DNA from: a virus
Taxonomy: Duplodnaviria > Heunggongvirae > Uroviricota > Caudoviricetes
Direction: 5' to 3' (one strand)
Virus record (IMG/VR): IMGVR_UViG_3300037466_000352
DNA: 64,000 nucleotides
In this document: positions 8,866-63,008 of the stretch, in pieces
Position numbering within the stretch: position 1 is the first letter of the stretch
Layout: every line of letters begins with the position of its first letter
Notes under the pieces: model-generated
The model's database searches: none
Told to the model about the DNA's origin: nothing
What the model saw: the letters and a program-made list of their open reading frames with translations, nothing else
Position numbers and translations under genes: made by a program

Positions 8866-8894
8866 TTGCAAAATTCCCAAGGTTGTGAGATAAT
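8866..8894 (+). promoter_or_regulatory. Sigma70-type promoter (TTGCAA-N17-GATAAT) with an ATTCCCA spacer box
   Basis: TTGCAAAATTCCCAAGGTTGTGAGATAAT. Confidence 0.6.
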
Positions 8895-8920
8895 GCCGTT
8901 ACTGACCTAGCTCGACCCGC

Positions 8921-9256
8921 ATGAAAGTACATTCCATCTACCGCATCCTGAACCTTGTGAACGGGAAGTCGTACATTGGCTACACCAGTAAGCCGCCGAT
9001 CAAGCGGTGGTGGGACCATAAGGCGCAGATTCAGATAAACACCAAACAACGTCTGTACGCTGCTATACGTAAGTATGGCATAGACAACTTCCGCTTCGAT
9101 GTCCTGTATCAGTCGCTCGATGAATACCATGCACATCGTGTCATGGAACCCCACTTCATCCGAGAGTATGACACTTTCGGTAATAACGGGTACACACATT
9201 ACTACATCTGCGCACGTTTGAAAGACGGCAAAGACCAGAACATCTTTTATGTCTAG
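8921..9256 (+). CDS. GIY-YIG nuclease-domain protein (free-standing homing-endonuclease-like, catalytic domain only)
   Basis: 111 aa. SIYRILNLVNGKSYIGYT...RWWDH...E...N matches the GIY-YIG core. Confidence 0.6.
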   Translation: MKVHSIYRILNLVNGKSYIGYTSKPPIKRWWDHKAQIQINTKQRLYAAIRKYGIDNFRFDVLYQSLDEYHAHRVMEPHFIREYDTFGNNGYTHYYICARLKDGKDQNIFYV

Positions 9257-10313
9257 TTTGTACATTGACGTGAAGTACGTTAGCTTCATCGCTTCACGTC
9301 TTCAGAATTTCAAGAAGAAGGACGCTAATCTCTGGAATTGTCGCTGTCCAATTTGCCTCGATTCGAAGACAAACAAAACGAAGGCGCGTGGTTACATATA
9401 CATGCGCGAACAGCGATTGTTCTATCTCTGTCACAATTGTGGCGCATCGATGTCCTTTGGCAACTTCCTCGAATCAGTCGATCCGGTTCTTTATGGTGAG
9501 TACCGACTGGAAGTGTGGCGCGAGAAGAACCAGACGCGCGTTGATCGATCACCTGCCAAGCCACAGGAAGAAAAGGAACCGGACGTAGACCTCTTCAAAA
9601 CGTCTACAGCAACCCGGCTGAAGGCGAAGGTGTCGATCCCTCAACCGACTCTTCTGGACAGCTTGATGGACCGGCTAGACACACTGCCGTTCGATCATGA
9701 AGCTGTGGTCTATGCGATGAATCGGAAGATACCAGAAGACCAGTTGCACAAGATGTATTTCATCCCGAACATGCTGAACATCGTTCAGTTGAACAAGGAC
9801 AAGTACAAAGACCGTATCAAGACTAACGAACCGCGCATCGTCATGCCGTTCTATGACCTCAAAGGACAACTGACCGGCGTCACATGTCGGGCGATCCGTG
9901 GCGAGAAGTTGCGGTACGTGGTCGTCAAGGTGAAGGACGATGCGCCCTTGATCTTTGGTATCAACGACATCGACCGTACGAAGAAGGTGTATGTGGTCGA
10001 AGGTCCGATTGATTCGATGTTCGTTCCAAACTGTATCGCTGTTGGTGGCACGTCGATGGGTAAAATTCGATCCCTTGGTCTGAAGGACACAACCATCGTG
10101 TTCGATAATCAGCCGCGCAACAAGGACGTGTGTCGGATTCAGGAACAGGCGATCAACAGCGGATCAAACGTGGTCATATGGAATCCACGGATCGCACAGA
10201 AGGACATCAACGACATGGCGATGGCTGGTATCGACTACATGAAGGAAATCGATACACGGACCTTCTCTGGGCTACAAGCAAAATTAGAATTCAATGAATG
10301 GAAGAAATGCTGA
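9249..10313 (+). CDS. DNA primase (T4 gp61 / DnaG-like; zinc-binding domain plus TOPRIM)
   Basis: 354 aa. CRCPICLDS...CHNCG zinc ribbon. TOPRIM YVVEGPIDSMF and DNQPRNKD. Confidence 0.8.
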   Translation: MSSLYIDVKYVSFIASRLQNFKKKDANLWNCRCPICLDSKTNKTKARGYIYMREQRLFYLCHNCGASMSFGNFLESVDPVLYGEYRLEVWREKNQTRVDRSPAKPQEEKEPDVDLFKTSTATRLKAKVSIPQPTLLDSLMDRLDTLPFDHEAVVYAMNRKIPEDQLHKMYFIPNMLNIVQLNKDKYKDRIKTNEPRIVMPFYDLKGQLTGVTCRAIRGEKLRYVVVKVKDDAPLIFGINDIDRTKKVYVVEGPIDSMFVPNCIAVGGTSMGKIRSLGLKDTTIVFDNQPRNKDVCRIQEQAINSGSNVVIWNPRIAQKDINDMAMAGIDYMKEIDTRTFSGLQAKLEFNEWKKC

Positions 10314-10510
10314 ATCATAAGCATATAGAAATCCGTCACATCACGACAGAAGAAGATGGTGACGAGTATAACAGCATCGAAATCTACATCGATGGTATGT
10401 TGGCGCAGACGTTCAACCGAGACGCAAGAGTTGACATCGATGCAGAATCAGAAGCTTGGCTTAGTGCGGTATGTTACCTGTGTCCAGGTATTACGTGGGA
10501 ATACACATGA
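10298..10510 (+). CDS. Hypothetical small protein
   Basis: 70 aa ORF overlapping the primase 3' end. Confidence 0.4.
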   Translation: MEEMLNHKHIEIRHITTEEDGDEYNSIEIYIDGMLAQTFNRDARVDIDAESEAWLSAVCYLCPGITWEYT

Positions 10511-10692
10511 ACCTGTGCGCATGTATGGGACCGATCAAGGGCGAACCATATTGTCCTTGTAAGATGCAGACTCTAGGTCTTCGAATAGCCGAGGACTACG
10601 AATGGTCTGCCGAAGAAAAGGAAGCGTTCACCAAGGCGCTTGAACAATACGGCTGGAAAACAGATGCAAGCACGAATCATCAAACACTTTGA
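10507..10692 (+). CDS. Hypothetical small Cys-rich protein
   Basis: Trimmed to ATG 10507 (MNLCACMGPIKGEPYCPCK). ATGA overlap with the previous ORF. Confidence 0.35.
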   Translation: MNLCACMGPIKGEPYCPCKMQTLGLRIAEDYEWSAEEKEAFTKALEQYGWKTDASTNHQTL

Positions 10693-10912
10693 ACGCGACG
10701 AAGAAAGTGGCCGTCTTCTCACCGATAGTGACTACCACTATGTCACGGTAGAGATTCACGGCCACAAGGTCAAGAACTACGGCGACTACTACCACGAAAA
10801 AGGCTTCGAGCGAGCACAGGCATTCATCGAAGGCTACGCACACGCCATCGGAATGACCAAAGGCGTCAGCATCATGTATAGCGAAGCGGAAGTTGAGTAT
10901 GGGCACGCCTGA
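10664..10912 (+). CDS. Hypothetical protein
   Basis: Trimmed to the internal ATG (MQARIIKHF...). Confidence 0.4.
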   Translation: MQARIIKHFERDEESGRLLTDSDYHYVTVEIHGHKVKNYGDYYHEKGFERAQAFIEGYAHAIGMTKGVSIMYSEAEVEYGHA

Positions 10913-10923
10913 ATCTGAAAACA

Positions 10924-11277
10924 ATGATCTACTTGCCTCGCTATTCACCGAAGACGATGCAGTTAAGAAGATCAGGGCTATTCTGCCAGAAAAAATGCCG
11001 TCTCCACGTCAGATACATCGTCCCCACTATGGAATGGCGCATGTATTCTGACGTGGATGGCGCAAAAGAAGATTTCCGTCGATACATCAAGACATCGATG
11101 GCAACCTCTATGGGTCATTTGATTCTCGATGAAAAGCCAGACGCCTTCACGGAAAGTTTTGATTTCGATGTCGGCCAAAGATTTGATGGCGAGGCAATCG
11201 TGTTCAGCCCCAAAGAGTGGCGCGAGTTTCAAAACAAGCTGGCCGAAATAATCACTAACACAAGATATAAGTTCTGA
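10924..11277 (+). CDS. Hypothetical protein
   Basis: 117 aa ORF. Confidence 0.5.
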   Translation: MIYLPRYSPKTMQLRRSGLFCQKKCRLHVRYIVPTMEWRMYSDVDGAKEDFRRYIKTSMATSMGHLILDEKPDAFTESFDFDVGQRFDGEAIVFSPKEWREFQNKLAEIITNTRYKF

Positions 11278-12114
11278 ATGACAATTGAAGCAAAAGTAGT
11301 GGCCGACTCGGTATACATGCACCAAGGCAAGCCGCAACGCATCACCACGCTACAACTGCGATATCCCCGCTTCATCCACGCAGAATTCATGACACATCGA
11401 GTATTCTCGCGCAACGCATCATCGTCGCGTGCGATTCCTGTCATGAAGATTCTCGCGTCGATCTGGAAAGACCCGGCGATGCCGATCCATTGGGGCGCAA
11501 ACCAAGCCGGTATGCAAGCCAAGGCCGAACTGTCGGACTTCAAGGCATACGTCGCTGAAAAGCTGTGGCGTGGTGCTGGCAAGCTGGCCTGTGTGTTCGC
11601 CTATGGTATGACCAAGCTTGGTCTACACAAGCAGGTAGCGAACCGCATCACGGAACCGTGGCAGCATATCTCGGTCATCGTCACGGCGACTGAATGGAAG
11701 AACTTCTTCGACCTTCGCGATCACCCGGACGCACAACCCGAGATTCGTGAACTCGCGACGCAGATCAAGATCGCGATGGAAGAGTCCGAACCGGTCGAAC
11801 TTAGTTACGGACAGTGGCACTTGCCATATGTGACTGATGATGAACTATGCACGTATGACTTGCCGACTTTGAAGAAGATTTCGGCGGCACGCTGTGCCCG
11901 CGTCTCATACTTGACGCATGACGGACTGACGCCAGATGTCGAAAAGGACATCGCCCTTCATGACCGTCTTGTTGGTTCGGTTCCGATTCATGCAAGCCCG
12001 GTCGAGCACCAAGCCACACCAACGAAATCCAACAAGTTCTACAAGAATTTCCGTGGTTGGATGCAGTACCGATTCGAAGTTGAAGCACAACAAAACAGCA
12101 AGAAAACACGATGA
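11278..12114 (+). CDS. thyX: Flavin-dependent thymidylate synthase ThyX
   Basis: 278 aa. ThyX signature RHRVFSRNASSSRA (RHRX7-8S). Confidence 0.85.
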   Translation: MTIEAKVVADSVYMHQGKPQRITTLQLRYPRFIHAEFMTHRVFSRNASSSRAIPVMKILASIWKDPAMPIHWGANQAGMQAKAELSDFKAYVAEKLWRGAGKLACVFAYGMTKLGLHKQVANRITEPWQHISVIVTATEWKNFFDLRDHPDAQPEIRELATQIKIAMEESEPVELSYGQWHLPYVTDDELCTYDLPTLKKISAARCARVSYLTHDGLTPDVEKDIALHDRLVGSVPIHASPVEHQATPTKSNKFYKNFRGWMQYRFEVEAQQNSKKTR

Positions 12115-12944: not shown

Positions 12945-12945
12945 C

Positions 12946-16827: not shown

Positions 16828-17214
16828 ATGATCCTTACCCCAGAAAAGTTGATCTGGGTGAAAGCGCCATTCTCGAAAGAGCGTGGCGCTTTTTCGCTTG
16901 CATCGGCGCAACTTGGCGTGCATGTGGATCATCTGGAACACCAGTACGACGATGCTTCACTTCGACCCCTCACCGATATGATATGGCGTCGCCTAGAGAA
17001 CACGAAGTCTTGGACCGTGCGACGCCCGAATGACACCAAACTGGACCTCTCGTCGATGATCGACACCTTCAATGGCGGTCGCATCCCGGCCCCGGTGGTG
17101 ATTGAGTATGTGCGGGACCGGTACTGGATGGTTGCTGGCGAGCAACAGTTGCAGGTTTCCCGAGTATCCGGCATCACTCCCAAAGTTGTTTTTGTTCGCA
17201 CGAACTACCGATAG
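16828..17214 (+). CDS. Hypothetical protein
   Basis: The track ORF 16687 overlaps nrdA, so it is trimmed to ATG 16828 (MILTPEK...). Confidence 0.5.
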   Translation: MILTPEKLIWVKAPFSKERGAFSLASAQLGVHVDHLEHQYDDASLRPLTDMIWRRLENTKSWTVRRPNDTKLDLSSMIDTFNGGRIPAPVVIEYVRDRYWMVAGEQQLQVSRVSGITPKVVFVRTNYR

Positions 17215-17225
17215 TGTGGTATAAT
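17177..17225 (+). promoter_or_regulatory. CTCCCAAAGTTGT box plus an extended -10 promoter (TGG-TATAAT)
   Basis: TGGTATAAT at 17217-17225. Weak -35. The 13-mer CTCCCAAAGTTGT also occurs at 6057 and 41740. Confidence 0.45.
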
Positions 17226-19523: not shown

Positions 19524-19877
19524 GTCGGATTCGTCTATCTGATTACCGATCACGCGAACAACAAGTTGTATATCGGCAAGAAGCTTTACCACTTCCAGAA
19601 ACAGAAGCAAGTCAAAGGTAAAAAGAAGAAGATCAAGGTCGAGTCGGACTGGAAGGAATACTACGGTTCCAATGACGCACTGAAGGCCGAAGTCGAGAAG
19701 CATGGCCCCGAGAAGTTCACACGGGAAATCCTGCACCAATGCCAAGGCAAGGGCGAGATGGGCTATTGGGAAGCCTACGAGCAATTTTCGCGCCATGTCC
19801 TACTGTCTGACGAATACTACAACGGCTGGATCAGCGCAAAAATTACCAAGGCACATGTTGCCAAGTTGCGCAAGTAG
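19524..19877 (+). CDS. GIY-YIG nuclease-domain protein (free-standing homing-endonuclease-like)
   Basis: Trimmed to MVGFVYLITDHANNKLYIGKK (GIY-YIG). Lys-rich linker. Confidence 0.6.
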   Translation, partial: VGFVYLITDHANNKLYIGKKLYHFQKQKQVKGKKKKIKVESDWKEYYGSNDALKAEVEKHGPEKFTREILHQCQGKGEMGYWEAYEQFSRHVLLSDEYYNGWISAKITKAHVAKLRK

Positions 19878-19882
19878 TATGT

Positions 19883-19935
19883 AGAATCCCTCTCACGTCG
19901 TGCTGTGGCGACGGAACCCCACTAGAGAGGGAGTA
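19883..19935 (+). promoter_or_regulatory. Structured 5' leader with nested inverted repeats (CCCTCTC...GAGAGGG)
   Basis: 7-8-bp outer arms with an inner CGTCG/CGACG repeat, just upstream of the RBS ggagt of the 19940 gene. Confidence 0.4.
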
Positions 19936-19939
19936 AAAC

Positions 19940-20533: not shown

Positions 20534-20591
20534 TTGACAAACTCACATCTGGTCCGTAAAATCATTCCCAACTTTGGTAGGAGATTATTTC

Positions 20592-20993
20592 ATGGAAATG
20601 TTTCGCATCTGCATCGTCGGATCGTTCGGCAGTCACATCGAAGAAGTTCCATTCAAGGATCGAGATGAAGCCAGAACGTATGCAAAAACAACAGCAAAAG
20701 AGATGCAGGGCGTCTCGTATGGCTTGGTCAGTCTAGGCGAGGCCGTGTTGATGAAGGTCGAAGTCACTGACACGTTTGGTGGCGAAGCAAACTATTCATG
20801 GGTCGAACGGTACGAGCAGTGGATACCACGTAAGCTGACATCTCGCGCAAAGATTCGCACAGCGAAGCGCTTGGCTGGGTGGACGGGAATGCACTGCCAG
20901 AAGGACGACTTCGGCGATGCCTACACGCTTCATCCGCGCGGAATCTGTCAGGTCATGTTTGTGAATTTCGATTACGACCACGAAAACGGTTGA
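20592..20993 (+). CDS. Hypothetical protein
   Basis: Trimmed to ATG 20592 (MEMFRI...). Confidence 0.5.
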   Translation: MEMFRICIVGSFGSHIEEVPFKDRDEARTYAKTTAKEMQGVSYGLVSLGEAVLMKVEVTDTFGGEANYSWVERYEQWIPRKLTSRAKIRTAKRLAGWTGMHCQKDDFGDAYTLHPRGICQVMFVNFDYDHENG

Positions 20994-21018
20994 CAAGAAT
21001 TCCCAGACCTGTTAGTAT
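20990..21018 (+). promoter_or_regulatory. Conserved promoter TTGACA-N17-TAGTAT with an ATTCCCA box
   Basis: TTGACAAGAATTCCCAGACCTGTTAGTAT. Confidence 0.6.
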
Positions 21019-22067: not shown

Positions 22068-22096
22068 TTGCACAATTCCCAAGGTTGGTGTATAAT
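22068..22096 (+). promoter_or_regulatory. Conserved promoter TTGCAC-N17-TATAAT with an ATTCCCA box
   Basis: TTGCACAATTCCCAAGGTTGGTGTATAAT. Confidence 0.6.
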
Positions 22097-22159
22097 ACGC
22101 AGTACAGTTGAGCAGTATCTACATGATGACCGAACAACCACAAACATCATGTAACAAGA

Positions 22160-23110
22160 ATGATCGTAGTAGATTACTCTGGCGTCTCGATCACGCAGAT
22201 CATGGGCGCTTTGCAGGGCGACAATACGGCAGTGATTGAACCTGACGCCTTCAGGCATCTCTTCCTCTTCAACCTGCTGGAATACAAGAAGAAGTACGGT
22301 CAGCGCTTTGGCGAAATCGTCTTTGCCGTTGACAACAAGCAATACTGGCGTAAGGCCATGTACCCCTGGTACAAGTGCTATCGCAAGAAGCAGAAGGAAG
22401 ATCAGGGCTTCGATTGGGACATGATTCATCACTGCATGGACGTGGTGAAGGCGGAACTGACTGAGTTCTTTCCGTATCCCGTGATCGACGCACCATTCGC
22501 CGAGGCAGATGACGTGATCGGTACGTTGGCAGAATACAGCCAGACGAGCGACGTGAAGGAAGATATGTTCGGCCAAAGTGAACCCAAGCCGTTCCTTATC
22601 ATTGCGTCCGACACCGACTTGGCGCAGTGTCAGCAGTATCCGAACGTCAAGCAGATTAGCCCGTACACCAAGGAACAAGTCGTTCCGAAGCTTGAGAAGA
22701 GTGGCGAGAAGGTGAAGGTGTCACTCGAAGAGTACGTACTTGACCACTTGCTGACGGGCGATGCCGGTGACTCTATCCCGAACATCCTCACTGAAGACGA
22801 CTTCTTTCAGAAGAAGCTGGACAATCCAGATACGAAGGTTCGTCAGAAGTCGGTCACGGCGAAGGTGAAGGAATTTTATCTGCCGCAGTGGATCGAACAC
22901 GGCGAGATTCGAGAGTTCCGTAACGAGGCCGAAGAGAAGGCATTCAAGCGGAACTTCAAGCTGATCCACTTCGATTCGATCCCTCAACGCGTGAAGGACA
23001 ATGTGATCCGCACGTACGAAGGTCAGCTTGGTAAGGACCGGTCACAACTTCTCGATTATTTCGTGAAGAACCGGTTGAAGAACTTGATGGATGAAATAGA
23101 GAACTTCTGA
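22160..23110 (+). CDS. rnh: RNase H / 5'-3' flap endonuclease (T4 rnh homologue)
   Basis: 316 aa. Matches T4 RNase H: QYPNVKQISP, LIIASDTD, C-terminal IENF. Confidence 0.85.
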   Translation: MIVVDYSGVSITQIMGALQGDNTAVIEPDAFRHLFLFNLLEYKKKYGQRFGEIVFAVDNKQYWRKAMYPWYKCYRKKQKEDQGFDWDMIHHCMDVVKAELTEFFPYPVIDAPFAEADDVIGTLAEYSQTSDVKEDMFGQSEPKPFLIIASDTDLAQCQQYPNVKQISPYTKEQVVPKLEKSGEKVKVSLEEYVLDHLLTGDAGDSIPNILTEDDFFQKKLDNPDTKVRQKSVTAKVKEFYLPQWIEHGEIREFRNEAEEKAFKRNFKLIHFDSIPQRVKDNVIRTYEGQLGKDRSQLLDYFVKNRLKNLMDEIENF

Positions 23111-27696: not shown

Positions 27697-28189
27697 GTTC
27701 ACTACGTTTTCCTTCGTAGTGAACAGGAACGTCATGGTGGTTCAACACAACTGCCATGCCTCTATTGACGTATCCGCTGTACCCATGATCGACCACGGCG
27801 CGTTCGAATGCGTTGCCGTGGTCTTCTCCGTTGTAGACGTGCTTCGCAGCCGTCTCACGAACTTCTTTGGCATGTTCCTGTGAAGCAGTATCCGGGTTGT
27901 ACATGTTGTGCAGCTTCGCGCTGTACGTGTGTTGCCCAAGTCCCGATTCGTGGACCTTCGATACCTTTTCGCCTTCGTTGGCGTGGTAGAAGTAGACACG
28001 ACTCTTGATGCGTGCGTCCTTCGTCTCCGACAGGCGTTTCGCTTCAGCACCCTTGATTCCCGTCCCATAAATCCGACCGTCGAGACTGGTCAACCCTTCC
28101 TTGTGCGAATAGTGCAGGCCGTGGATCGTCTCGCCCTTGACCGGCGCTGCGACCTCGCGCTCGGTGATGAACTGTTTGAATGATTGCAT
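27677..28189 (-). CDS. Hypothetical protein on the minus strand (putative late gene)
   Basis: 170 aa. Convergent with the NTase gene, overlapping it by about 20 nt. On the minus strand CTAAATAAT lies about 28 nt upstream of its ATG. Confidence 0.55.
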   Translation of the reverse strand: MQSFKQFITEREVAAPVKGETIHGLHYSHKEGLTSLDGRIYGTGIKGAEAKRLSETKDARIKSRVYFYHANEGEKVSKVHESGLGQHTYSAKLHNMYNPDTASQEHAKEVRETAAKHVYNGEDHGNAFERAVVDHGYSGYVNRGMAVVLNHHDVPVHYEGKRSELMKATA

Positions 28190-28227
28190 TGACTGTTCCC
28201 AATGTTGATGGTATTATTTAGACTCAT
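28189..28227. promoter_or_regulatory. Divergent promoter region: + strand TTGACT-N17-TATTAT, and minus-strand CTAAATAAT late-type motif on the same AT tract
   Basis: TTGACTGTTCCCAATGTTGATGGTATTATTTAGAC. Its reverse complement contains CTAAATAATA. Confidence 0.5.
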
Positions 28228-28248
28228 CAACGGTTACGGGAGTGTTCT

Positions 28249-28524
28249 ATGCACCGACAATTCATTCTTTCCGATGTGGGTTCCGACGCACTTGGTAATA
28301 CCAAGACGTGGGTCACGGTCGAAGACACGCTTCGTCCTCTTGGCGGCGTGTGTGTGACTATTTCGACGACCTACAACAAGGCGCGAAAGCCCGAACAACA
28401 CGTGTCCAAGCTGCGTCTGGTCATCGAAGATCGGGCCAAGCTGGCGGAACTCGCGGCCTTCCTGCTGGGTTGCGCCGTATCGACCGAGGGTGTTCCCATT
28501 GACAACATTCCCAAACTTGGGTAA
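28249..28524 (+). CDS. Hypothetical protein
   Basis: 91 aa ORF downstream of the promoter. Confidence 0.45.
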   Translation: MHRQFILSDVGSDALGNTKTWVTVEDTLRPLGGVCVTISTTYNKARKPEQHVSKLRLVIEDRAKLAELAAFLLGCAVSTEGVPIDNIPKLG

Positions 28525-28527
28525 TAT
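28499..28527 (+). promoter_or_regulatory. Conserved promoter TTGACA-N17-TAATAT with an ATTCCCA box
   Basis: TTGACAACATTCCCAAACTTGGGTAATAT. Confidence 0.6.
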
Positions 28528-28554
28528 ACGCATTCCACCAACTTTGGAATCGTC

Positions 28555-29973: not shown

Positions 29974-30002
29974 TTGACTGAATTTCCATGATTGGGTATG
30001 AT
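29974..30002 (+). promoter_or_regulatory. Promoter TTGACT-N17-TATGAT
   Basis: TTGACTGAATTTCCATGATTGGGTATGAT. Confidence 0.45.
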
Positions 30003-30424: not shown

Positions 30425-30473
30425 TTGACAAGTAACCAACGTTGGGATAGTATAACACCTGTCCCAACGTTGG
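30425..30473 (+). promoter_or_regulatory. Promoter TTGACA-N17-TAGTAT flanked by two CCCAACGTTGGG palindromes
   Basis: CCAACGTTGGGA at 30435 and CCCAACGTTGGG at 30461 flank the -10. The same palindrome occurs twice at 3820-3863. Confidence 0.55.
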
Positions 30474-30497
30474 GACTCACTTACAGGAGAGCATCAC

Positions 30498-32529: not shown

Positions 32530-32808
32530 ATGGGTTATTTCGAACGGTTCGGAACCGACATCACGGACTTCTGGCCGGATGATGACGAAACAACGCTGTA
32601 CTTATCATCCGGCCAACTAACGATGGCTGACCTGATCCAACACGCCAAGGAACACTTTGGCGACGATGTAAAGATCGAAGACATCGAAGTATCGGCAGAG
32701 AAGATTCACACGCATTGCATCTATTATGATCTGTACGATGCCAGCGACTATACCGACTTCGTTGTTCTAACACACAAGAAACAAAATCCCATCGTTGGGA
32801 ATGCTTGA
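32530..32808 (+). CDS. Hypothetical protein
   Basis: 92 aa ORF. Confidence 0.5.
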   Translation: MGYFERFGTDITDFWPDDDETTLYLSSGQLTMADLIQHAKEHFGDDVKIEDIEVSAEKIHTHCIYYDLYDASDYTDFVVLTHKKQNPIVGNA

Positions 32809-32859
32809 CAGAACTCCCGGTTGCGAGTATGATTCAGTTCATACCAACGCACCGGGAGT
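32805..32859 (+). promoter_or_regulatory. Promoter TTGACA-N17-TATGAT whose spacer and leader form an inverted repeat sequestering the SD (AACTCCCGGTTGCG / CGCACCGGGAGTT)
   Basis: The 5' arm lies in the spacer (32812-32825). The 3' arm (32846-32859) contains the SD GGGAG of the 32866 gene. The predicted TSS falls between the arms. Confidence 0.5.
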
Positions 32860-32865
32860 TTTCAC

Positions 32866-34348: not shown

Positions 34349-34376
34349 TTGACAAACGCACACACGTCTGTATAAT
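34349..34376 (+). promoter_or_regulatory. Promoter TTGACA-N16-TATAAT with a roughly 100-nt leader
   Basis: TTGACAAACGCACACACGTCTGTATAAT. The leader contains a direct repeat ATGTAGATTTCT / ATGTAGTTTCT. Confidence 0.55.
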
Positions 34377-35617: not shown

Positions 35618-35666
35618 TTGACACAAATTCCCAGACTTGATATAATGTGCGAATTCAAGTCTGGGA
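35618..35666 (+). promoter_or_regulatory. Conserved promoter TTGACA-N17-TATAAT with an 11-bp inverted repeat (CCCAGACTTGA / TCAAGTCTGGG) flanking the -10 and sequestering the SD
   Basis: TTGACACAAATTCCCAGACTTGATATAATGTGCGAATTCAAGTCTGGGAG. The 3' arm overlaps the SD GGGAG of the 35674 gene. Confidence 0.6.
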
Positions 35667-35673
35667 GTCAACG

Positions 35674-35841
35674 ATGAAGAAGAGCAAGAAAAAGAAGAAC
35701 TTCAATAATCACAAAAGCAACACAATTGTGATCGAGTTCGATTCTCCGAAGCCACGCATTGGTGTGATCTTCACCAAGGTCGTGTCTAACAAGAACCTGA
35801 AGAAGCACAAGATCAAGCACAAACACAAGGTTGTAGATTGA
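35674..35841 (+). CDS. Small Lys-rich basic protein (55 aa)
   Basis: ATG 35674 with RBS gggag. The track used the upstream GTG. Confidence 0.5.
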   Translation: MKKSKKKKNFNNHKSNTIVIEFDSPKPRIGVIFTKVVSNKNLKKHKIKHKHKVVD

Positions 35842-38414: not shown

Positions 38415-39785
38415 ATGATGAACAACATAAACATCAACATTGCACTAGAACAAAACTTCATCCTCGAATCTGACTCGTACAAGTTCAGCCACATTCCCGA
38501 AATCTACCCCGAAGGCGCTGAAGCCCTGCACTCGTATCTGTCGGCCCGCGTGAAGGGTCAACGTGTGGTCCAGTTCGGCCTTCAGATGTGGATCAAGAAG
38601 AAGCTGTTGGCCCCGATCACCCGCGAGATGGTGGACGAAGCTGAAGACTTCATCAACAAGCACATCGGCCCGAACGCGTTCAACCGTCCTTTCTGGGAAC
38701 ACATCCTGAAGAAGTATGGCGGGTTCATTCCGCTGACTATCCGTGGTCTTCCCGAAGGCACGGTCACGAACAGCTACGACACGCTGATTACGGTCGAATG
38801 CGATGACCCGGTGGTGTTTCCGCTGGCGCAACACATCGAAGCTTCGCTGCAATCGGACATGTGGTACAGCACGACCATTGCGACCAACGACCTCGAAAAC
38901 TATGAAGTCGCCAAATCGCACTTCGACCTGTATTCGGACCAACCGTTCCTTCTGCCGTTCATGCTTCACGACTTCGGCGCACGTGGTGTGACCTGTGAAG
39001 AACAACGCCAGATTGGCGGTGCTGCGCACTTGCTGTTCTTCCAAGGTTCGGACACGATCAGCGGCATCCGTGCAGCGAATCTGTTCTATGGTTGCGAAAT
39101 GGCCGCGTATTCGGTTCGTGCCACGGAACATAGCATCCAGTGCGCCTACGGCCCGGAAGCCCAAGAAGCGTACATCTCGCGCGTTCTGACCGCACATGCG
39201 AAACCGGGCAACATCGTGTCGCTGGTGCTGGACGGATACAACGTCTGGCGCGAGTCAGAATTGCTGTGTACGAAGTTCAAGCAACAGATCATCGACAGTG
39301 GTGCGAAGATCGTATTCCGACCTGACTCGGGTGACATGTTCGAAGTGATTCCGCGTCTGCTGGAAATGCAAGCTAACGCGTTCGGCTTCACGGTCAACTC
39401 GAAGGGCAAGAAGGTCATCAACAACGTCGGCGTGATCCAAGGGGACGGTATCGATAAGACGACCTTCATGCTGCTGATGCAAAAGGTCGTGGCCCTCGGC
39501 TATGCCCCAGAATGCGTCGTGATGGGTTCCGGTGGCGGTCTTTTGCAGAAGTGCAACCGCGATACCCTGAAGTTCGCACAGAAGGCCGCAGCGGTCAAGA
39601 TCAACGGTCAGTGGGTTTCGATCTTCAAAGACCCGATCACCGATCCGGGTAAGAAGTCGAAGACCGGCATCCAAGATGATCCGCGATTCATCACGTTCTA
39701 CAACGTCGATGATGGTCTGCTGGTGGACGAATCGTTCGACGTGATCCGCGAACGTGCGTTGGCTGGCGCAGTGATCCGCAAATAA
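38415..39785 (+). CDS. nadV: Nicotinamide phosphoribosyltransferase (NAMPT/NadV)
   Basis: 456 aa. N-terminal DSYKFSH. Typical NAMPT length and motifs. Confidence 0.9.
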   Translation: MMNNININIALEQNFILESDSYKFSHIPEIYPEGAEALHSYLSARVKGQRVVQFGLQMWIKKKLLAPITREMVDEAEDFINKHIGPNAFNRPFWEHILKKYGGFIPLTIRGLPEGTVTNSYDTLITVECDDPVVFPLAQHIEASLQSDMWYSTTIATNDLENYEVAKSHFDLYSDQPFLLPFMLHDFGARGVTCEEQRQIGGAAHLLFFQGSDTISGIRAANLFYGCEMAAYSVRATEHSIQCAYGPEAQEAYISRVLTAHAKPGNIVSLVLDGYNVWRESELLCTKFKQQIIDSGAKIVFRPDSGDMFEVIPRLLEMQANAFGFTVNSKGKKVINNVGVIQGDGIDKTTFMLLMQKVVALGYAPECVVMGSGGGLLQKCNRDTLKFAQKAAAVKINGQWVSIFKDPITDPGKKSKTGIQDDPRFITFYNVDDGLLVDESFDVIRERALAGAVIRK

Positions 39786-39840
39786 ACCCAAGATTGGGTT
39801 GACGTAGCAAGAACCGACAGGTATGATAGTTGCCTGTCGG
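39785..39840 (+). promoter_or_regulatory. Hairpin AACCCAAGATTGGGTT plus promoter TTGACG-N17-TATGAT with inverted repeat CCGACAGG/CCTGTCGG around the -10
   Basis: TTGACG 39799-39804. The -10 TATGAT (39822-39827) sits in the loop of the 8-bp inverted repeat. Confidence 0.5.
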
Positions 39841-39887
39841 TCACTAGGACCGAAGTTCATGATCCACCATATTCGAGTTTCCGATAC

Positions 39888-40245: not shown

Positions 40246-40274
40246 TTGACACGAATTCCCAAGATCGGTATAAT
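40246..40274 (+). promoter_or_regulatory. Conserved promoter TTGACA-N17-TATAAT with an ATTCCCA box
   Basis: TTGACACGAATTCCCAAGATCGGTATAAT. Confidence 0.65.
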
Positions 40275-41739: not shown

Positions 41740-41792
41740 ATTCCCAAAGTTGTAAAGCAAGTTGTTGACGTAAATCTGACATCGTTGTATAA
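41740..41792 (+). promoter_or_regulatory. TTCCCAAAGTTGT box followed by promoter TTGACG-N17-TATAAT
   Basis: GATTCCCAAAGTTGTAAAGC...TTGACGTAAATCTGACATCGTTGTATAAT. Confidence 0.55.
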
Positions 41793-41849
41793 TGTTTCAT
41801 AGTTGTACAGCGTTGTCAGTGCAGTAGCTAACACTTCTCGGAGAACATC

Positions 41850-42153: not shown

Positions 42154-42408
42154 ATGATCCTGAACGACTATACCAACGATGAACTTATCGCAGAACTCAA
42201 GGACCGGGGTTTTGTGATCCAAACGAAAGAAGTAGCAGACGAAGTAGAAGATTGTGTCGATTCCGGTATCGCACTTTGCAACCTGATCGACGCGATGAAG
42301 ACCGCAATCGTTCAAGGCAATATCCGGCTTCAACAAAAGATCGTCAGTGCGATGATTTTCGCTGCGACCGGAGACGAGTTCCAGTTCGAAGAACAGGTTG
42401 CGGCATAA
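42154..42408 (+). CDS. Hypothetical protein
   Basis: 84 aa ORF. Confidence 0.5.
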   Translation: MILNDYTNDELIAELKDRGFVIQTKEVADEVEDCVDSGIALCNLIDAMKTAIVQGNIRLQQKIVSAMIFAATGDEFQFEEQVAA

Positions 42409-42739
42409 TTCCTCAACCCGCAGTTTAGAAGCAATGTCAAGCGCAATCCTTACTACACCTGAAGCAAAGCGCCGGATCAACGGCGCATTCCGTGACATCT
42501 CGGACGTTCTCATTAAGATCGAGGCCGGTCGAGATACGATTAAGCAAATCATCGCGGACTTCAGCGAAGAGTTTCAGATCGACAAAAAGCAGTTTCGCAA
42601 GATGGCAATGACCTACCACAAGGGCAACTTCGGCGAAGCAACGAAGCAAAACGAAGAGTTCGAAATCATGTACGAAACGCTCACGGGCGAACGTGCTGGT
42701 GATCCGGGCGATTCAAACAACGGTGAAGACGACGAATGA
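42398..42739 (+). CDS. Hypothetical protein
   Basis: 113 aa. The start may be the internal ATG at about 42434. Confidence 0.45.
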   Translation: MRHNSSTRSLEAMSSAILTTPEAKRRINGAFRDISDVLIKIEAGRDTIKQIIADFSEEFQIDKKQFRKMAMTYHKGNFGEATKQNEEFEIMYETLTGERAGDPGDSNNGEDDE

Positions 42740-45833: not shown

Positions 45834-46178
45834 ATGAATACTACCGAAAGTCGCGATGAAGCTATCGCTAGATCGGCGGTCGGTGCTGGTGAAGTATGGA
45901 TGAATGATGCGTTCGAAATGATGCACCGTTACGCGAGCGAACATCATGAATTCATGACCGAAGATGTGAGGAAGTTCTCCCTCGAATCAGGTCTTCCCGC
46001 ACCAAAAGATAATCGCGCATGGGGTGCAGTTACCATGCGCGCTATCAAGGCCGGTCTTATTCAGAAGAACGGGTTTGGTGTAACGAAGGTTTCGAGTAAT
46101 GCCAGACACATGTTGCAGTGGAAAAGTCTGATTTGTGGTGCGCCGCCGCGCATCAATATCGAAGACCTTTTCAGTTGA
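45834..46178 (+). CDS. Hypothetical protein
   Basis: The track ORF 45693 overlaps the upstream gene, so it is trimmed to ATG 45834 (MNTTESR...). Confidence 0.5.
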   Translation: MNTTESRDEAIARSAVGAGEVWMNDAFEMMHRYASEHHEFMTEDVRKFSLESGLPAPKDNRAWGAVTMRAIKAGLIQKNGFGVTKVSSNARHMLQWKSLICGAPPRINIEDLFS

Positions 46179-46255
46179 CAAAGATGGGAGTCCGTGATAG
46201 GATTCCCATTGTCGTTTATGGGTTAAATAGTTGATCCACATTAACGCATACAAAC

Positions 46256-47180: not shown

Positions 47181-47210
47181 AGGCCGGTCAAAAAGATCGG
47201 CCTTTTTTTA
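47181..47210 (+). terminator. Rho-independent terminator
   Basis: GGCCGGTC-AAAAA-GATCGGCC followed by a T7 run. Confidence 0.8.
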
Positions 47211-47218
47211 TTTTGCGC

Positions 47219-47271
47219 TTGACAAACATTCCCAGACATGTATAATCCATTCCGTCAACAACGCATCTGGG
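47219..47271 (+). promoter_or_regulatory. Conserved promoter TTGACA-N16-TATAAT with an inverted repeat (CCCAGACATG / CATCTGGG) flanking the -10 and covering the SD
   Basis: TTGACAAACATTCCCAGACATGTATAAT. The 3' arm overlaps the SD GGGAG of the 47282 gene. Confidence 0.6.
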
Positions 47272-47589: not shown

Positions 47590-47856
47590 ATGAAAACCGT
47601 CTACATCGTTCCCGCATTCTCCGACCAAGCCGGTCAGTGCCGCATCGTTGCCACGGTGACTGGACAGAGGCTTCAAAACGTCTCGCGCGACTATAACCAT
47701 TACCCGGACAAGTGGCGCGAAGTCGGCATCATGAACTCTCAAGGCAAGCTGGTCTGCTATGACGGAAAGTCAGAAGAGTTTGTAGAAATCAAGGCGTGCG
47801 AACCACTCGCCGCTGGTCTGGTCTTCGAGTTCGAAGGCATTCATCATTGGGCTTGA
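47590..47856 (+). CDS. Hypothetical protein
   Basis: Trimmed to ATG 47590 with RBS gggagg. Confidence 0.5.
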   Translation: MKTVYIVPAFSDQAGQCRIVATVTGQRLQNVSRDYNHYPDKWREVGIMNSQGKLVCYDGKSEEFVEIKACEPLAAGLVFEFEGIHHWA

Positions 47857-47881
47857 CAAGTATTCCCAGGGTTGGTAAGAT
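47853..47881 (+). promoter_or_regulatory. Conserved promoter TTGACA-N17-TAAGAT with an ATTCCCA box, followed by the conserved leader CATCGACAACAACTTTGGGGAGTG
   Basis: GCTTGACAAGTATTCCCAGGGTTGGTAAGAT. The leader is nearly identical to the one at 63872-63896. Confidence 0.65.
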
Positions 47882-47916
47882 TCACACATCGACAACAACT
47901 TTGGGGAGTGCAAGAC

Positions 47917-48298: not shown

Positions 48299-48327
48299 TT
48301 GACAAGTATTCCCACACTTGGTAATAT
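48299..48327 (+). promoter_or_regulatory. Conserved promoter TTGACA-N17-TAATAT with an ATTCCCA box
   Basis: GCTTGACAAGTATTCCCACACTTGGTAATAT. Confidence 0.65.
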
Positions 48328-48679: not shown

Positions 48680-48708
48680 TTGACAAACATTCCCAACTCT
48701 GGGATAAT
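48680..48708 (+). promoter_or_regulatory. Conserved promoter TTGACA-N17-GATAAT with an ATTCCCA box
   Basis: CTTGACAAACATTCCCAACTCTGGGATAAT. Confidence 0.65.
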
Positions 48709-56237: not shown

Positions 56238-56454
56238 AGAGAAGTGGATAGAAGCAGGGCCGTTGCCGAACGGGCACTACCTGTTCTACAAAGAAAACGA
56301 AGTCGGTGGTCGCACCTACATGACCGATGAATGTGGTTGTGGTGTCGTGATCTGGGATACGGCGATCACGGATTATCACACCCTGTTGGCCGCAATTGTT
56401 CATGAAGACCATTTGCGTATCAAAGAGTTTTACGAGAAAGAGCATGCAAGCTGA
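56230..56454 (+). CDS. Hypothetical protein
   Basis: 74 aa ORF. Confidence 0.45.
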   Translation: MSEEKWIEAGPLPNGHYLFYKENEVGGRTYMTDECGCGVVIWDTAITDYHTLLAAIVHEDHLRIKEFYEKEHAS

Positions 56455-56719
56455 AGTACAAGAAGTCCACGCAACAGACGAATTTCTGATTACCAAGGAA
56501 TTCGCATCGGCAGAACAGTTCTCGATGTTCATCGAAGAGACAGCCATCAAAGAAGGTATGGACCTGATCGATGTCATTCTGAATTACTGCGAAGAGAAAG
56601 ACATCGACGTTGACGTTACCGCCAAACTCGTCACCAAGTCACTCAAAGAAAAACTCGCCGTCGAATTCCAAGAACGGAAGATGATGCGCTCCGAATCCGG
56701 CACACTGGAAGACCTGTGA
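56444..56719 (+). CDS. Hypothetical acidic protein
   Basis: Trimmed to ATG 56444 (MQAEVQE...). Confidence 0.45.
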   Translation: MQAEVQEVHATDEFLITKEFASAEQFSMFIEETAIKEGMDLIDVILNYCEEKDIDVDVTAKLVTKSLKEKLAVEFQERKMMRSESGTLEDL

Positions 56720-56849
56720 GTTGGAACAACGTTATACCGTGGTCCTATTTCCACAAGTTGGACCATCTCAAACTTGCACACATATCGTGCGCGTTCGTCA
56801 ATGAAGTTGATATTGGTGAACTTCGAAGCGATTGGTGCAACTTCTACTG

Positions 56850-57344
56850 ATGCTTTCATTCAAAGAATTCCTGCAAGAGAAGTACGGTACGACCGGAACC
56901 TATGCAGCCCTGAAGTTCGATCAACCGTCCACGGATGACATCGAAGCTTATCAGGCACACAACAAGATTCCGAACCCGGTCCCAGCGGACAAGCTACACG
57001 TAACATTGCTGTATTCGCGTAGACACATGGCCGGGTTCAAACCGCGCGGGCGACTAGAATCGCTCATAAAGGCTCGCGTCGCCGGGTTCGATGTCTGGGA
57101 TACCCAAGACGGAAAGAAGGCACTGGTGGCCCGTTTGGACGCCCCGGAACTCGTTGCACGCCATCGCGAACTGATGGACAAGTACAACGGGACTTACGAT
57201 TTCCCAGAATACAAGCCGCACACCACGTTGTCATATGATGTCGGCCCAGATTTCGATCACCAGAACCTTCCTCCATTTGGTCCTGTCCTCACGCTCGACA
57301 ACGAGTTCGGTGAAGACCTCGACCTCGATTGGAAGGCTGATTGA
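56850..57344 (+). CDS. 2H phosphoesterase-superfamily protein (LigT / 2',3'-cyclic phosphodiesterase-like)
   Basis: Two H-x-T-x motifs (HVTLLY and HTTLSY) about 80 aa apart. Confidence 0.65.
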   Translation: MLSFKEFLQEKYGTTGTYAALKFDQPSTDDIEAYQAHNKIPNPVPADKLHVTLLYSRRHMAGFKPRGRLESLIKARVAGFDVWDTQDGKKALVARLDAPELVARHRELMDKYNGTYDFPEYKPHTTLSYDVGPDFDHQNLPPFGPVLTLDNEFGEDLDLDWKAD

Positions 57345-60088: not shown

Positions 60089-60113
60089 AAAAGCCCGCGA
60101 AAGCGGGCTTTTT
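60089..60113. terminator. Bidirectional Rho-independent terminator between convergent gene 32 and the minus-strand operon
   Basis: AAAAGCCCGC-GAAA-GCGGGCTTTTT with T/A runs on both sides. Confidence 0.85.
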
Positions 60114-60123
60114 CTTTGGTGCT

Positions 60124-62040: not shown

Positions 62041-62051
62041 TTAGATAACCT

Positions 62052-62249
62052 TTATGTGTGTTGCTGTTGCTTACGGAGAAGTTCGTTTCGTTCTGCCTCT
62101 TCTCGAATGTGTTGGACAAGCTGACCGACGTAAATTTCTCGCTCCCACGGCAACATCTCGTCCAATTCGGTCAACGAATATTTATGGAACTGGACGAGAC
62201 TGAAGTTCAACTTGTAGTAGTTGAACAAACTGTCATGTGAGAGCATCAC
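62052..62249 (-). CDS. Hypothetical protein
   Basis: 65 aa. Overlaps the upstream gene's stop (ATGA on the minus strand). Confidence 0.45.
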   Translation of the reverse strand: MMLSHDSLFNYYKLNFSLVQFHKYSLTELDEMLPWEREIYVGQLVQHIREEAERNELLRKQQQHT

Positions 62250-62944
62250 CCGAAAAAAGCTTCGATGCCTTCCAGTGTGTATTGTGTATCTTTCTCACAG
62301 TGCGGGCACTTGTCAGTGAACGTATGCTTCAACACCGGCATAGTTGCGAAGAAGTTCTCGATCTGTTCGAACTGCTGCGATGTTAGTGATTCAAGGAAAG
62401 CCCGAACTTCTTCGAGTGGTTCGTCCTTGGTCGGGTGAACTTCTTCGTCAGTGAAAACAGTCTTGATGCACTTCATGATTGTTTCGTAGACCGTCTCGAC
62501 GCTATAGTTCTTGTTCAGATAATCGAGTTGTTCCGTTGTTGGATATTCCATCTCTACACCGAGATTGTCTGCCAACATGATCTTCGTGCTATGTCCATCT
62601 GTCTTGATAACTTTGACATCGGGAAGCTGAAGTCGATAATCGTGCTGCTGTTCACAGTGCCCACAAGTCAGAACCAAGTCAACCGATTCCCCAACTGATC
62701 GAATGCGAATCTGCATGAACATGTATTCAAGGTCGAAGTTCGGCAAACTCTCGATGTCAAGCTTTCCGAATGAACACGTATCGACCACATTACGGACAGA
62801 CAACAGGATGTCCGCGTCGTTGCTCTGAAGTGCCATCAAGAGCGTCTTCTGTTCTCCGACCAACCAGGGACGACACTTGATCTTTTTCCCGGTGGATGGC
62901 AGTGTCAGTTCAAAGATAGGGTAGTTGTTGCGTGGCAGAGCCAT
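62246..62944 (-). CDS. Hypothetical protein with two CxxC pairs (zinc-ribbon); putative late gene
   Basis: 232 aa. CGHC...CPHC. The minus-strand CTAAATAG motif lies about 27 nt upstream of its ATG. Confidence 0.6.
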   Translation of the reverse strand: MALPRNNYPIFELTLPSTGKKIKCRPWLVGEQKTLLMALQSNDADILLSVRNVVDTCSFGKLDIESLPNFDLEYMFMQIRIRSVGESVDLVLTCGHCEQQHDYRLQLPDVKVIKTDGHSTKIMLADNLGVEMEYPTTEQLDYLNKNYSVETVYETIMKCIKTVFTDEEVHPTKDEPLEEVRAFLESLTSQQFEQIENFFATMPVLKHTFTDKCPHCEKDTQYTLEGIEAFFG

Positions 62945-62964
62945 GAAATAGTCCTCAGTGATGA

Positions 62965-63008
62965 TCGACTATTTAGTTGTTGACACGCATTCCCAACCTT
63001 GGTAATAT
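62965..63008. promoter_or_regulatory. Divergent region: minus-strand CTAAATAG late-type motif (62969-62976) and + strand conserved promoter TTGACA-N17-TAATAT (62980-63008)
   Basis: GTTGACACGCATTCCCAACCTTGGTAATAT, followed by CATCGACA and RBS aggagg. Confidence 0.6.

Follow-up and report, generated by a model that had tools for sequence, protein, structure and literature searches.

A conserved box overlapping the early promoters of an uncultured T4-like phage clade: a candidate operator

Why should promoters that already approach the sigma70 consensus carry a further conserved sequence between their two hexamers? The question is raised by a 64,000-nucleotide stretch of Caudoviricetes DNA (IMG/VR record IMGVR_UViG_3300037466_000352; the whole stretch is called the window here), in which a series of near-identical promoters has an ATTCCCA box in the spacer. 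The original prediction, made from the window alone, took this box for a second recognition event in transcription initiation, involving for instance a modified RNA polymerase or a factor comparable to the T4 appropriator MotA. Comparison with related genomes leads us to a different reading. The box appears to be kept as a sequence, in either orientation and overlapping the core promoter, and we propose, with a probability of roughly 0.4, that it is a duplex-DNA site read by a sequence-specific factor, an operator that would co-regulate the early promoters.

The box, its promoters and the phages that carry them

Promoters were present where they had been predicted, twelve strong ones with -35 hexamers starting at 8866, 20990, 22068, 28189, 28499, 35618, 40246, 47219, 47853, 48299, 48680 and 62980, and weaker copies at 29974, 30425 and 63840. 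All are near-consensus sigma70-type promoters on the gene strand with a spacer of 17 nt (16 nt at 47219). The internal arrangement proposed for them, N2-ATTCCCA-N5-TGG, has no match even when three mismatches are allowed, its inner spacing being one off; the usual layout is TTGACA-N3-ATTCCCA-N4-TG(G), and the -10 hexamer, given as TATAAT, is mostly TAAGAT, TAATAT or TATGAT. A shared start of the leader (ATCGACA) was found as described, although it is common to five promoters (20990, 47853, 48299, 62980 and 63840) and not to four. Three further copies of the box had been regarded as detached from any promoter. The copy at 6057 is the spacer box of a perfect promoter on the minus strand (TTGACA-17-TATAAT, 6074..6046), whereas those at 17177 and 41740 do lie outside spacers, yet each precedes a promoter, with its -10 hexamer at 17220 and 41788, respectively.

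Each promoter belongs to a compact cassette consisting of an upstream stop codon, the -35, the spacer box, the -10, a +1 leader (AUCGACAAC), a strong Shine-Dalgarno (SD) sequence of the GGAG type and an ATG. The stop codon sometimes falls in the -35 itself: at 20991-20993, 32806-32808 and 47854-47856 the TGA of the upstream open reading frame (ORF) lies inside the TTGACA of the next promoter, an extreme packing of coding and regulatory signals. By crude gene calls, strong GGAG or GGGAG sequences precede 15 of 18 promoter-proximal genes, compared to 13 of 116 others. Because most downstream genes lack a strong SD and many overlap or abut the preceding stop codon, their translation may need coupling. 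ATTCCCA occurs 18 times on the plus strand, where 3.6 copies are expected. Our own promoter scan returned 40 sites on the plus strand and 18 on the minus strand, against 25 +/- 5 in shuffled sequence, and in an independent scan of 19-59 kb all 20 promoter-like sites scoring at least 10/12 were on the plus strand.

The window encodes proteins of T4 type, including a gp41-like helicase, a primase, a ribonucleotide reductase, a ligase and a gp26-like baseplate hub. Identity to cyanophage T4-likes is 43% for the hub and 50-55% for the helicase. Families for gp32, gp59, the gp33 late coactivator, DsbA and the C-terminal domain of T4 RNase H were also matched. Judged by this gene content, the window is part of an uncultured T4-like myovirus. 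Among GenBank phages there was no near-identical genome and no cassette-level match, and a cultured relative was not found. Syntenic relatives were recovered from IMG/VR by a pattern scan and protein-anchored scans: one at 98-99% nucleotide identity, one lineage at ~77%, three contigs of ~168 kb at ~70-75%, and one more contig (L034). Five related IMG/VR lineages carry the same box. A ligase scan of metagenomes returned one near-identical contig and distant relatives and nothing else, and a viral scan with the protein of 3911-5125 gave no match. Since the next nearest gp41 sequences beyond these relatives are only 56-59% identical, the box-bearing phages form a distinct uncultured clade. Run against a genome collection, the combined pattern of promoter and box produced 48 single matches in unrelated taxa, about the number expected by chance on our own estimate, and no host signal.

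Across all lineages we assembled 111 non-redundant promoters, allowing up to two mismatches; 104 lie on the gene strand. The pattern YTCCCR-N4-YG lies between the -35 and -10 in forward orientation in 57 of the 111 and inverted in 12, compared to 0.8% and 0.5% of random 29-nt windows, respectively. Between -72 and +24 a box is present at 84 of the 104 gene-strand promoters, against 5.3% of random 96-nt windows. A logo anchored on the box in 54 spacer copies, in which A-1, A5, T10 and G11 were not forced by the search, has A at -1 in 45 copies, A5 in 46, T10 in 47 and G11 in all 54, with an RRYY pattern in the N4. Read from this logo, the core of the box is a dyad, CCCA-RRYY-TGGG (minimally CCA-N4-TGG), with the right arm reduced to TG(G) because the -10 hexamer cuts it. 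The TAATAT form of the -10 was considered as a possible right half of the dyad (TGGTAAT), but this hexamer is found in other registers too. At its 5' edge the box has an RNase E-like RNAUU motif that is too degenerate to weigh.

Shared ancestry by itself predicts a box no more conserved than its surroundings; we found it to be more conserved. In 44 orthologous inter-lineage pairs, for which five of the seven box positions were fixed by the search pattern and the TG was unforced, identity was 1.00 for the TG, 0.94 for the box, 0.95 for the -35 and 0.87 for the -10, as opposed to 0.44 for the 3 nt before the box and 0.56 for the N4. When paralogues and orthologues are taken together, neighbouring spacer bases are 33-56% identical and the box and TG 84-100%. 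YTCCC is kept in 22 of 25 orthologues of the window's box promoters, the other three having TCCCCA. As conservation of the box about equals that of the -35, and the spacer bases beside it vary, the comparison indicates that it is under selection beyond the needs of sigma70, and in this respect the original prediction stands.

The position of the box is less constrained than its sequence. It starts 1-5 nt after the -35 and ends 6-10 nt before the -10, so that its register shifts over 5 nt, and the TG keeps its place relative to the box and not to the -10. Forward copies are concentrated at -28..-24, with further clusters at -59..-48 and -7..-4, and the inverted ones at -31/-30, +3..+11 and upstream positions. 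Inverted spacer copies always lie exactly 4 nt past the CA (or CC plus A) of the -35, and here the -35 hexamer supplies the weak half, as the TG beside the -10 does for a forward box. Orthologues can differ in placement: in group 2 L002 has a spacer box whereas the window has its copy past the -10, the group 28 box directly adjoins the -35, and in group 11 some orthologues have a box and others none. The promoter of the tRNA-Trp gene carries an inverted box, TTGACC-A-N3-T-TGGGAAT, that is kept in five lineages (the window and four others), with an Rfam tRNA downstream in two of the four relatives. This copy has no SD and no pairing partner. The -35 is TTGACC in all five of these promoters, which implies that CCA-N4-TGG is kept at the cost of the consensus A. 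Conversely, the perfect promoter at 34349 lacks a box, and so the box is not needed for a consensus promoter. Because register and orientation vary and the -35 is intact, a contact with RNA polymerase or an activator in fixed register, as had been envisaged with the MotA-like appropriator, is disfavoured; copies outside the spacer speak against it as well.

The cassettes and related features of the window are as follows, with strand in brackets.

2544..2572 (+): tRNA-Trp promoter, TTGACC-17-TACAAT, with inverted box TGGGAAT at 2555-2561, read as CCA-N4-TGG because the CC of the -35 and the following A supply the other half; tRNA gene at 2603-2678.
3818..3877 (+): composite of hairpin and promoter; arms AAGCCCAACGTT (3818-3829) and AACGTTGGGCTT (3853-3864) enclose the -35 (3848-3853); terminator-like, with a T-run after the hairpin and then the -10 TATGAT (3872-3877).
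6046..6074 (-): perfect promoter TTGACA-17-TATAAT with box, conserved together with the box in L033-L036.
8866..8894 (+): weaker box promoter, TTGCAA-17-GATAAT; box ATTCCCAAGGTTG at 8873-8885; gene for a GIY-YIG endonuclease (8921-9256) downstream.
17177..17225 (+): upstream-box promoter; box CTCCCAAAGTTGT (17177-17189) ~30 nt before an extended -10 promoter (TGGTATAAT, TATAAT at 17220-17225); cassette-type leader CATCACAACAAC.
19858..19939 (+): promoter TTGCCA-18-TAGAAT without spacer box; CCCTCTC after the -10 pairs with GAGAGGG in the SD region, and the arms are replaced in relatives by CCTGTCA/TGACAGG and TCCCC/GGGGA.
20534..20577 (+): promoter TTGACA-17-TAAAAT with the box after the -10 (ATTCCCAACTTTG, 20564-20576); spacer box in the L002 orthologue.
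20990..21018 (+): box promoter, box at 20999-21011; the -35 includes the TGA stop of the preceding ORF; homology to L008 breaks off just past the ATCGACA leader.
22068..22096 (+): box promoter TTGCAC-17-TATAAT, box at 22075-22087; 84% identical to L008, with a leader (22097-22160) unusually conserved against ~75-78% elsewhere.
28189..28248 (+): box promoter, GTTCCCAATGTTG at 28195-28207; spacer complementary to the cassette's leader and SD (GTTGATG/CATCAAC plus TTCCC/GGGAG).
28499..28554 (+): box promoter, box at 28507-28519; a second TTCCCA (28493-28498) abuts the -35 upstream; A-U to G-C compensation relative to L002.
29974..30002 (+): degenerate-box promoter, ATTTCCATGATTG at 29982-29994; canonical ATTCCCA in the G1-G3 orthologues.
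30425..30477 (+): inverted-box promoter, spacer CCAACGTTGGGA; perfect palindrome GTCCCAACGTTGGGAC at +8 (30461-30476), found as four sequence variants in five lineages, all still complementary.
32785..32865 (+): palindrome AATCCCATCGTTGGGAAT (32785-32802) and promoter (32805-32833); spacer arm AACTCCCGGTTGCG pairs with CGCACCGGGAGTT (SD), followed by TTTT (-29.7 kcal/mol); upstream box and long hairpin kept in G1-G3, with a compensating insertion in G3.
34349..34376 (+): perfect TTGACA-16-TATAAT promoter without box; the G1 and G2 orthologues carry one.
35618..35673 (+): perfect box promoter, box at 35627-35639; 14-bp inverted copy over the SD (CAAGTCTGGGAGT, 35656-35668; -23.1 kcal/mol).
39784..39850 (+): palindrome CCCA-N4-TGGG (ACCCAAGATTGGG) abutting the -35 of a promoter at 39799-39827, whose spacer arm ACCGACAGG pairs with CCTGTCGGT just past the -10; the G1-G3 orthologues have ATTCCCA-N4-TGGG abutting the -35, a G-C / G.U / A-U series, and U-tracts.
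40246..40274 (+): perfect box promoter, box at 40255-40267; no specific partner.
41740..41793 (+): upstream-box promoter; box ATTCCCAAAGTTG (41740-41752) 12 nt before the promoter (41765-41793), whose spacer pairs with the leader (GACATCGTTG/ACAGCGTTGTC); in three lineages the arms are unrelated and still pair.
46175..46215 (+): promoter with a 10-11 bp hairpin (46183-46210) whose 3' arm holds the -10 and whose arms include GGGAGT and ATTCCC; T-rich tail behind it, and spacer arm tracking -10 variants among orthologues.
47181..47246 (+): intrinsic terminator (47181-47203, with T-run), with a box promoter directly behind it (47219-47246; box, 47228-47240).
47853..47916 (+): box promoter, box at 47862-47874; spacer paired with CAACTTTGGGGA, SD included (-20.2 kcal/mol); upstream stop in the -35; AAGTGTG/CGCACTT instead in L005.
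48299..48327 (+): box promoter, box at 48308-48320; no specific partner.
48680..48708 (+): box promoter with local palindrome TCCCAACTCTGGGA, box at 48689-48701; no specific leader partner; box kept in four lineages, with varying flanks and register.
62980..63008 (+): box promoter, box at 62989-63001; a minus-strand, late-type CTAAATA (62976) adjoins it back to back.
63840..63902 (+): degenerate-box promoter, CCTTCCAAGTCTG at 63851-63863, complementary to ACTTTGGGAG at the SD; canonical box in L006.
1686, 5885, 6076, 13390, 51428, 52575, 58469, 58845 (+) and 62976 (-): copies of the late-promoter-like motif CTAAATA.

Inverted repeats overlapping the promoters

In about 40% of cassettes the leader, or the stretch before the -35, holds a second, inverted copy of the box or a complementary arm of unrelated sequence. 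These repeats covary and surround either the -10/+1 region or the -35, often including the SD and sometimes resembling terminators; at 35618, for example, the box arm TCCCAGACTTGA stands opposite TCAAGTCTGGGA. In the window, the duplex between a spacer and its own leader averaged -13.0 kcal/mol, compared to -8.9 kcal/mol with non-cognate leaders (z = -5.9), and in a set of 46 cassettes the corresponding values were -11.5 and -8.9 kcal/mol (z = -7.2). A 14-nt box probe gave -10.6 kcal/mol with its own leader, -8.5 with other leaders and -6.0 with random genome sequence, and reached -10 kcal/mol or lower with its own leader in 22 of 51 cassettes (4.6 expected). Neither the sequence before the -35 nor the first 87 nt of the gene was enriched in partners of the box. 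Pairing at or below -10 kcal/mol was found in 40 of 75 cassettes, mostly across the -10 and with loops of 14-25 nt, and the 3' arm covers the SD in 23 of the 75.

Roughly ten orthologous groups showed compensatory changes. Group 8 contains four versions of the arms, each of them complementary; RNAalifold counted five pairs changed on both sides there, in an alignment in which MAFFT misaligned the register of two rows. In group 16 GGGTTG/CAACTTT is replaced by AAGTGTG/CGCACTT, group 28 forms a G-C / G.U / A-U series, and group 9 contains a compensating insertion. The 10-bp stem of group 32 holds the -10 itself, and its opposite arm tracks the variants TAGGAT, TAGAAT and TAAGAT. Pairing arms unrelated to the box were found in groups 14 and 28. 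The class of the 3848 promoter has a consensus fold over five lineages of -21.7 kcal/mol with 21 pairs, four of which are changed on both sides, and U-tracts follow several 3' arms elsewhere. Given the compensatory change in orthologues, the conserved hairpin of the 3848 class and the terminator before 47219, composite promoter/hairpin and promoter/terminator designs are, by comparative evidence, a real feature of the clade. Terminators are not a general feature, as terminator-like sites are not enriched in the window. The terminator at 47181-47203 (a 9-bp stem with a T7 tail, 16 nt before the 47219 promoter) is a rare case in which terminator and promoter are separate rather than interleaved.

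Pairing does not account for the box as a whole. No specific partner in the leader or coding start was found for 29 of 51 box cassettes (57%), copy-specific partners being present in about a third to 43%. When the register is anchored on the SD, C4 faces a G in 48% of cassettes and positions 5-11 pair in ~32-52%, near the permuted values, although hardly any variation is seen at C4, A5, T10 and G11. The modelled probability that the SD is unpaired was 0.30 in read-through RNA and 0.61 in RNA from the cassette's own promoter, and a shuffled spacer gave 0.31. A search for strand asymmetry based on G.U pairs found none; the plus and minus strands fold equally well, and the stems can therefore not be assigned to RNA as opposed to DNA. 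Masking of the SD was rejected as a general explanation on the shuffled-spacer control, the fixed-register test and the partnerless majority. Since pairing fails for most copies and the inverted tRNA-promoter copy is also partnerless, our comparison indicates that it is the sequence of the box that is kept.

Known systems and the reading of the box

The closest known system is the promoter-early stem-loop (PeSL) cassette of T4-type phages, compared in RB49/phi1, T4/PST and KVP40/nt-1 (PMC2839356, PMC4122927), and the box is a new version of it, not a new kind of promoter activation. There the stem-loop lies between the hexamers, over either hexamer, upstream or just before the start site, with an SD and ATG next (PMC2839356); PeSLs adjoin ORFans in hyperplastic regions, have measured terminator activity and were proposed to shuffle as modules (PMC2839356, PMC4122927). 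Their authors also speculated that the conserved stem motif may be the target of a DNA-binding protein (PMC2839356). The present cassettes share the T4-type genome, near-consensus sigma70 early promoters ending in SD and ATG, the same five kinds of motif position relative to the hexamers, and a lineage-specific inverted repeat with a G/C core (TTCCCA..TGGGAA here, Gn-loop-Cn in RB49 and A3-4G3-loop-C3T3-4 in nt-1). CCCA/TGGG cores are found here in the box, in arms flanking the -35 and in arms overlapping the -10. The cassettes likewise appear to be associated with small ORFans and the most variable genome stretches, with one homology break inside a cassette (20990 versus L008), and there are clear terminator-promoter composites at 3818-3877, 46183-46210 and 32805-32865.

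In contrast to PeSLs, most copies here cannot form a local stem-loop, with the right arm reduced to TG(G), and the conserved half is kept as sequence and not just as pairing potential, also where it is inverted and partnerless. Partners here often lie across the -10 in the leader, including the ribosome site, an arrangement not found in the PeSL passages compared, and there is no AT-rich UP-like region. For PeSLs, promoter and terminator activity have been measured, and mini-circles that form when cassettes recombine are described. A second likeness is to the T4 genes e, soc, 49 and I-TevI, whose SD is hidden in read-through RNA and whose internal promoter lies inside the hairpin (PMC3014915). 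The same geometry, with the 5' arm upstream of the internal start and the 3' arm on the SD, is that of the 23 SD-covering cassettes, and in both cases only transcripts started upstream can fold. The T4 genes differ in having late internal promoters and in being individual cases, whereas dozens of cassettes with sigma70-type early promoters are involved here, and the 3' arm here often misses the ribosome site.

Operators within promoter spacers are exemplified by the 7-4-7 dyads of the MerR family near -23, by tetO and lacO in engineered spacers, and by the asymmetric C1 operators of phage P1. The box resembles them as a short, partly dyad-symmetric site in the spacer, centred at -19 to -25 and shared by many promoters, and its tolerance of register is expected if binding need only overlap RNA polymerase. 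It differs in that no cognate protein was found among the ~100 window ORFs and the dyad is shallow; moreover, MerR-type spacers are 19-20 bp long and those described here 16-18 bp. Like the present box, the T4 MotA box is specific to the phage, stands near -30 to -20 and precedes a sigma70-type -10. However, it replaces the -35 and stands 11-13 bp from the -10 in one orientation (PMC2988021), unlike the present box with its intact -35 (TTGACA or one mismatch in most), its distance of 6-10 nt, its two orientations and its copies outside the spacer.

We favour the reading of the box as an operator. At many promoters a conserved, sequence-specific site overlaps the footprint of RNA polymerase. 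A factor bound there, probably dimeric and encoded by the phage or the host, would compete with RNA polymerase because the box lies between or against the hexamers, and the effect would be co-regulation of early promoters, most simply their shut-off. The predominance of forward copies could reflect compatibility with the promoter, as the weak half of a forward box is the TG beside the -10, a favourable extended -10, whereas the inverted box forces TTGACC. The covarying repeats would form a second layer, folding in RNA that reads through from upstream. There they probably act as attenuators or terminators, and as SD masks in 23 of the 75 cassettes; transcripts from the cassette's own promoter would be unmasked because they lack the 5' arm.

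Several observations weigh against an operator. Searches of the ~100 window ORFs with Pfam and PHROG found no helix-turn-helix, ribbon-helix-helix, MerR, MotA or AsiA protein, with ~100 kb of the genome lying outside the window, and the lack of a cognate regulator in the window is the main weakness of our proposal. In copies clear of the hexamers the weak half is only TG(G/T), which leaves the dyad shallow. The orientation bias (57 versus 12) would also result from shared ancestry. Mirrored changes in the repeat arms, which in group 8 include box positions, point to base pairing or templated correction and not to protein contacts. Finally, work on PeSLs reads the corresponding motifs as stem-loops with measured terminator activity (PMC2839356).

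A narrower version of the proposal, in which a dedicated early phage repressor binds CCA-N4-TGG dyads within or against the core of ~60-80% of early promoters and switches them off jointly, seems unlikely to us as it stands. Candidates for such a repressor in the window are a DsbA-like protein (42398-42736), the sole recognised sequence-specific DNA-binding family among its ORFs, and a basic protein of 55 amino acids (35674-35841). How T4 shuts off its early promoters is still unexplained (PMC2988021), and the role of DsbA is not established even in T4; there and in many relatives dsbA and gene 33 overlap, with translational coupling between them (PMC2988020). In the window the DsbA-family gene sits 14 kb from the gene for the gp33 coactivator (56396-56716). 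The 55-aa protein contains 17 Lys/Arg (MKKSKKKKN...KKHKIKHKHK), is ~76% conserved in three lineages and has no family match; it may bind nucleic acid. Its gene stands behind a perfect box promoter whose box pairs with the gene's own ribosome site.

Among the alternatives, we regard as possible but doubtful that the box serves RNA pairing only, as the 5' arm of a read-through hairpin whose partner is the UGGGAG of the SD region or another leader segment. Such a hairpin would attenuate transcription or hide the ribosome site, leaving expression to the cassette's own promoter, which starts inside the hairpin. AUUCCCA is indeed complementary to UGGGAGU with one G.U pair, strong SDs are nearly confined to promoter-proximal genes, and the preference of the box probe for its own leader, the many cassettes that pair at -10 kcal/mol or below, the 3' arms on the SD, the compensatory changes and the U-tracts behind several 3' arms all fit; the T4 genes e, soc, 49 and I-TevI (PMC3014915) and the measured terminator activity of PeSLs provide precedents. 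What this explanation leaves aside is the partnerless 57% of box copies, and the near-invariance of C4, A5, T10 and G11 although positions 4-11 pair at chance in the SD-fixed register. In addition, real spacers mask the SD no better than shuffled ones, the inverted and partnerless box of the tRNA promoter is conserved in five lineages, strand asymmetry is absent, and most loops would be poor terminators because they are 14-25 nt long and have no U-tract.

It is less probable still, in our view, that the box has no direct function and is kept by descent, by gene conversion or as a homology patch in mobile, recombining modules that shuffle small genes. The cassettes look the part: their genes are ORFans (of 20 tested, only the GIY-YIG gene scored above the Pfam curated cut-off, and the PHROG families are of unknown function) that relatives lack or conserve poorly, the greatest differences in gene content fall in the cassette-dense regions (20.5-22 kb and 47-50 kb), the window's homology with L008 stops within the 20990 cassette, and the entire cassette, including the leader ATCGACAAC and the SD, is common to paralogues, as in the PeSL precedent. 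However, the conservation is position-specific, with box and TG set off from their neighbours; gene conversion is disfavoured because it would homogenise the flanks too; and between orthologues the box changes register and orientation while its sequence is kept. A second recognition element in initiation, be it for a MotA-like activator or appropriator, a modified RNA polymerase or, as a basal element, the host polymerase, is very improbable. It would suit a box that is selected, promoter-specific and mostly co-oriented with transcription, the commonest class, in which -35, box and TG follow at 10-bp intervals on one helix face, and the three weaker promoters (8866, 22068, 58353) that combine a poor -35 with a box; T4 early promoters, too, carry extra consensus beyond the sigma70 elements (PMC2988021). 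Yet no activator is needed where -35 and -10 are near consensus at optimal spacing, the variable distance to the -10 and the copies that are inverted, upstream of the -35 or after the -10 do not suit a polymerase contact, perfect boxless promoters exist and boxes are gained or lost among orthologues (34349, group 11), and the MotA and AsiA families were not found among the ~100 window ORFs.

Other features of the window and significance of the box

A separate class of promoter, distinct from the sigma70-type box promoters, is suggested by the motif CTAAATA. It is strand-biased, with eight copies on the plus and two on the minus strand, and at least six of the ten stand just upstream of start codons; one minus-strand copy precedes the gp26-like baseplate gene. 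CTAAATA is probably the T4-type late promoter of the clade. The minus-strand box promoter at 6046-6074 points against gene direction and is followed by GGGGTTCATG and then only an ORF of 4 to 7 codons. Its orthologues in L033-L036 are also on the minus strand, with the -35 starting at ~6220-6280 along the reverse-complemented locus. This promoter may drive an antisense or small RNA opposite the ORF at 5915-6079 and the late-type motif at 6076. The conserved leader at 22097-22160 holds an inverted repeat, ACATGATG...CATCATGT, and may encode a leader peptide, act as a regulatory leader or be a small RNA.

The tRNA-Trp gene was the sole Rfam match in the window. At 2603-2678 it has the normal length of 76 nt, whereas the orthologous tRNA-model matches in relatives span 140 nt (L033, 12388-12527) and 105 nt (L034, 10621-10725) and were not called by ARAGORN, which suggests insertions or introns in these phage tRNA genes. 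Counter-defence and auxiliary genes of the window include a homologue of the anti-CBASS protein Acb1 (56832-57341) and a nicotinamide phosphoribosyltransferase (38415-39785), and a second, SegE-like GIY-YIG gene lies in 1-38 kb besides that at 8921-9256.

T4-type phages are the reference system for viral reprogramming of host transcription, and PeSL motifs have so far been read only as stem-loops. The clade described here separates sequence from structure, with a majority of partnerless half-motifs, a minority of covarying stems and a conserved inverted copy in a tRNA promoter. Should no protein read the box, the five lineages and ~110 promoters would still form a comparative set on cassette evolution and the shuffling of small genes. 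If a protein does read it, the box would offer a handle on coordinated early shut-off; and if that protein is a dedicated repressor, the clade would gain an early shut-off mechanism, which might give the widespread DsbA family its first function.

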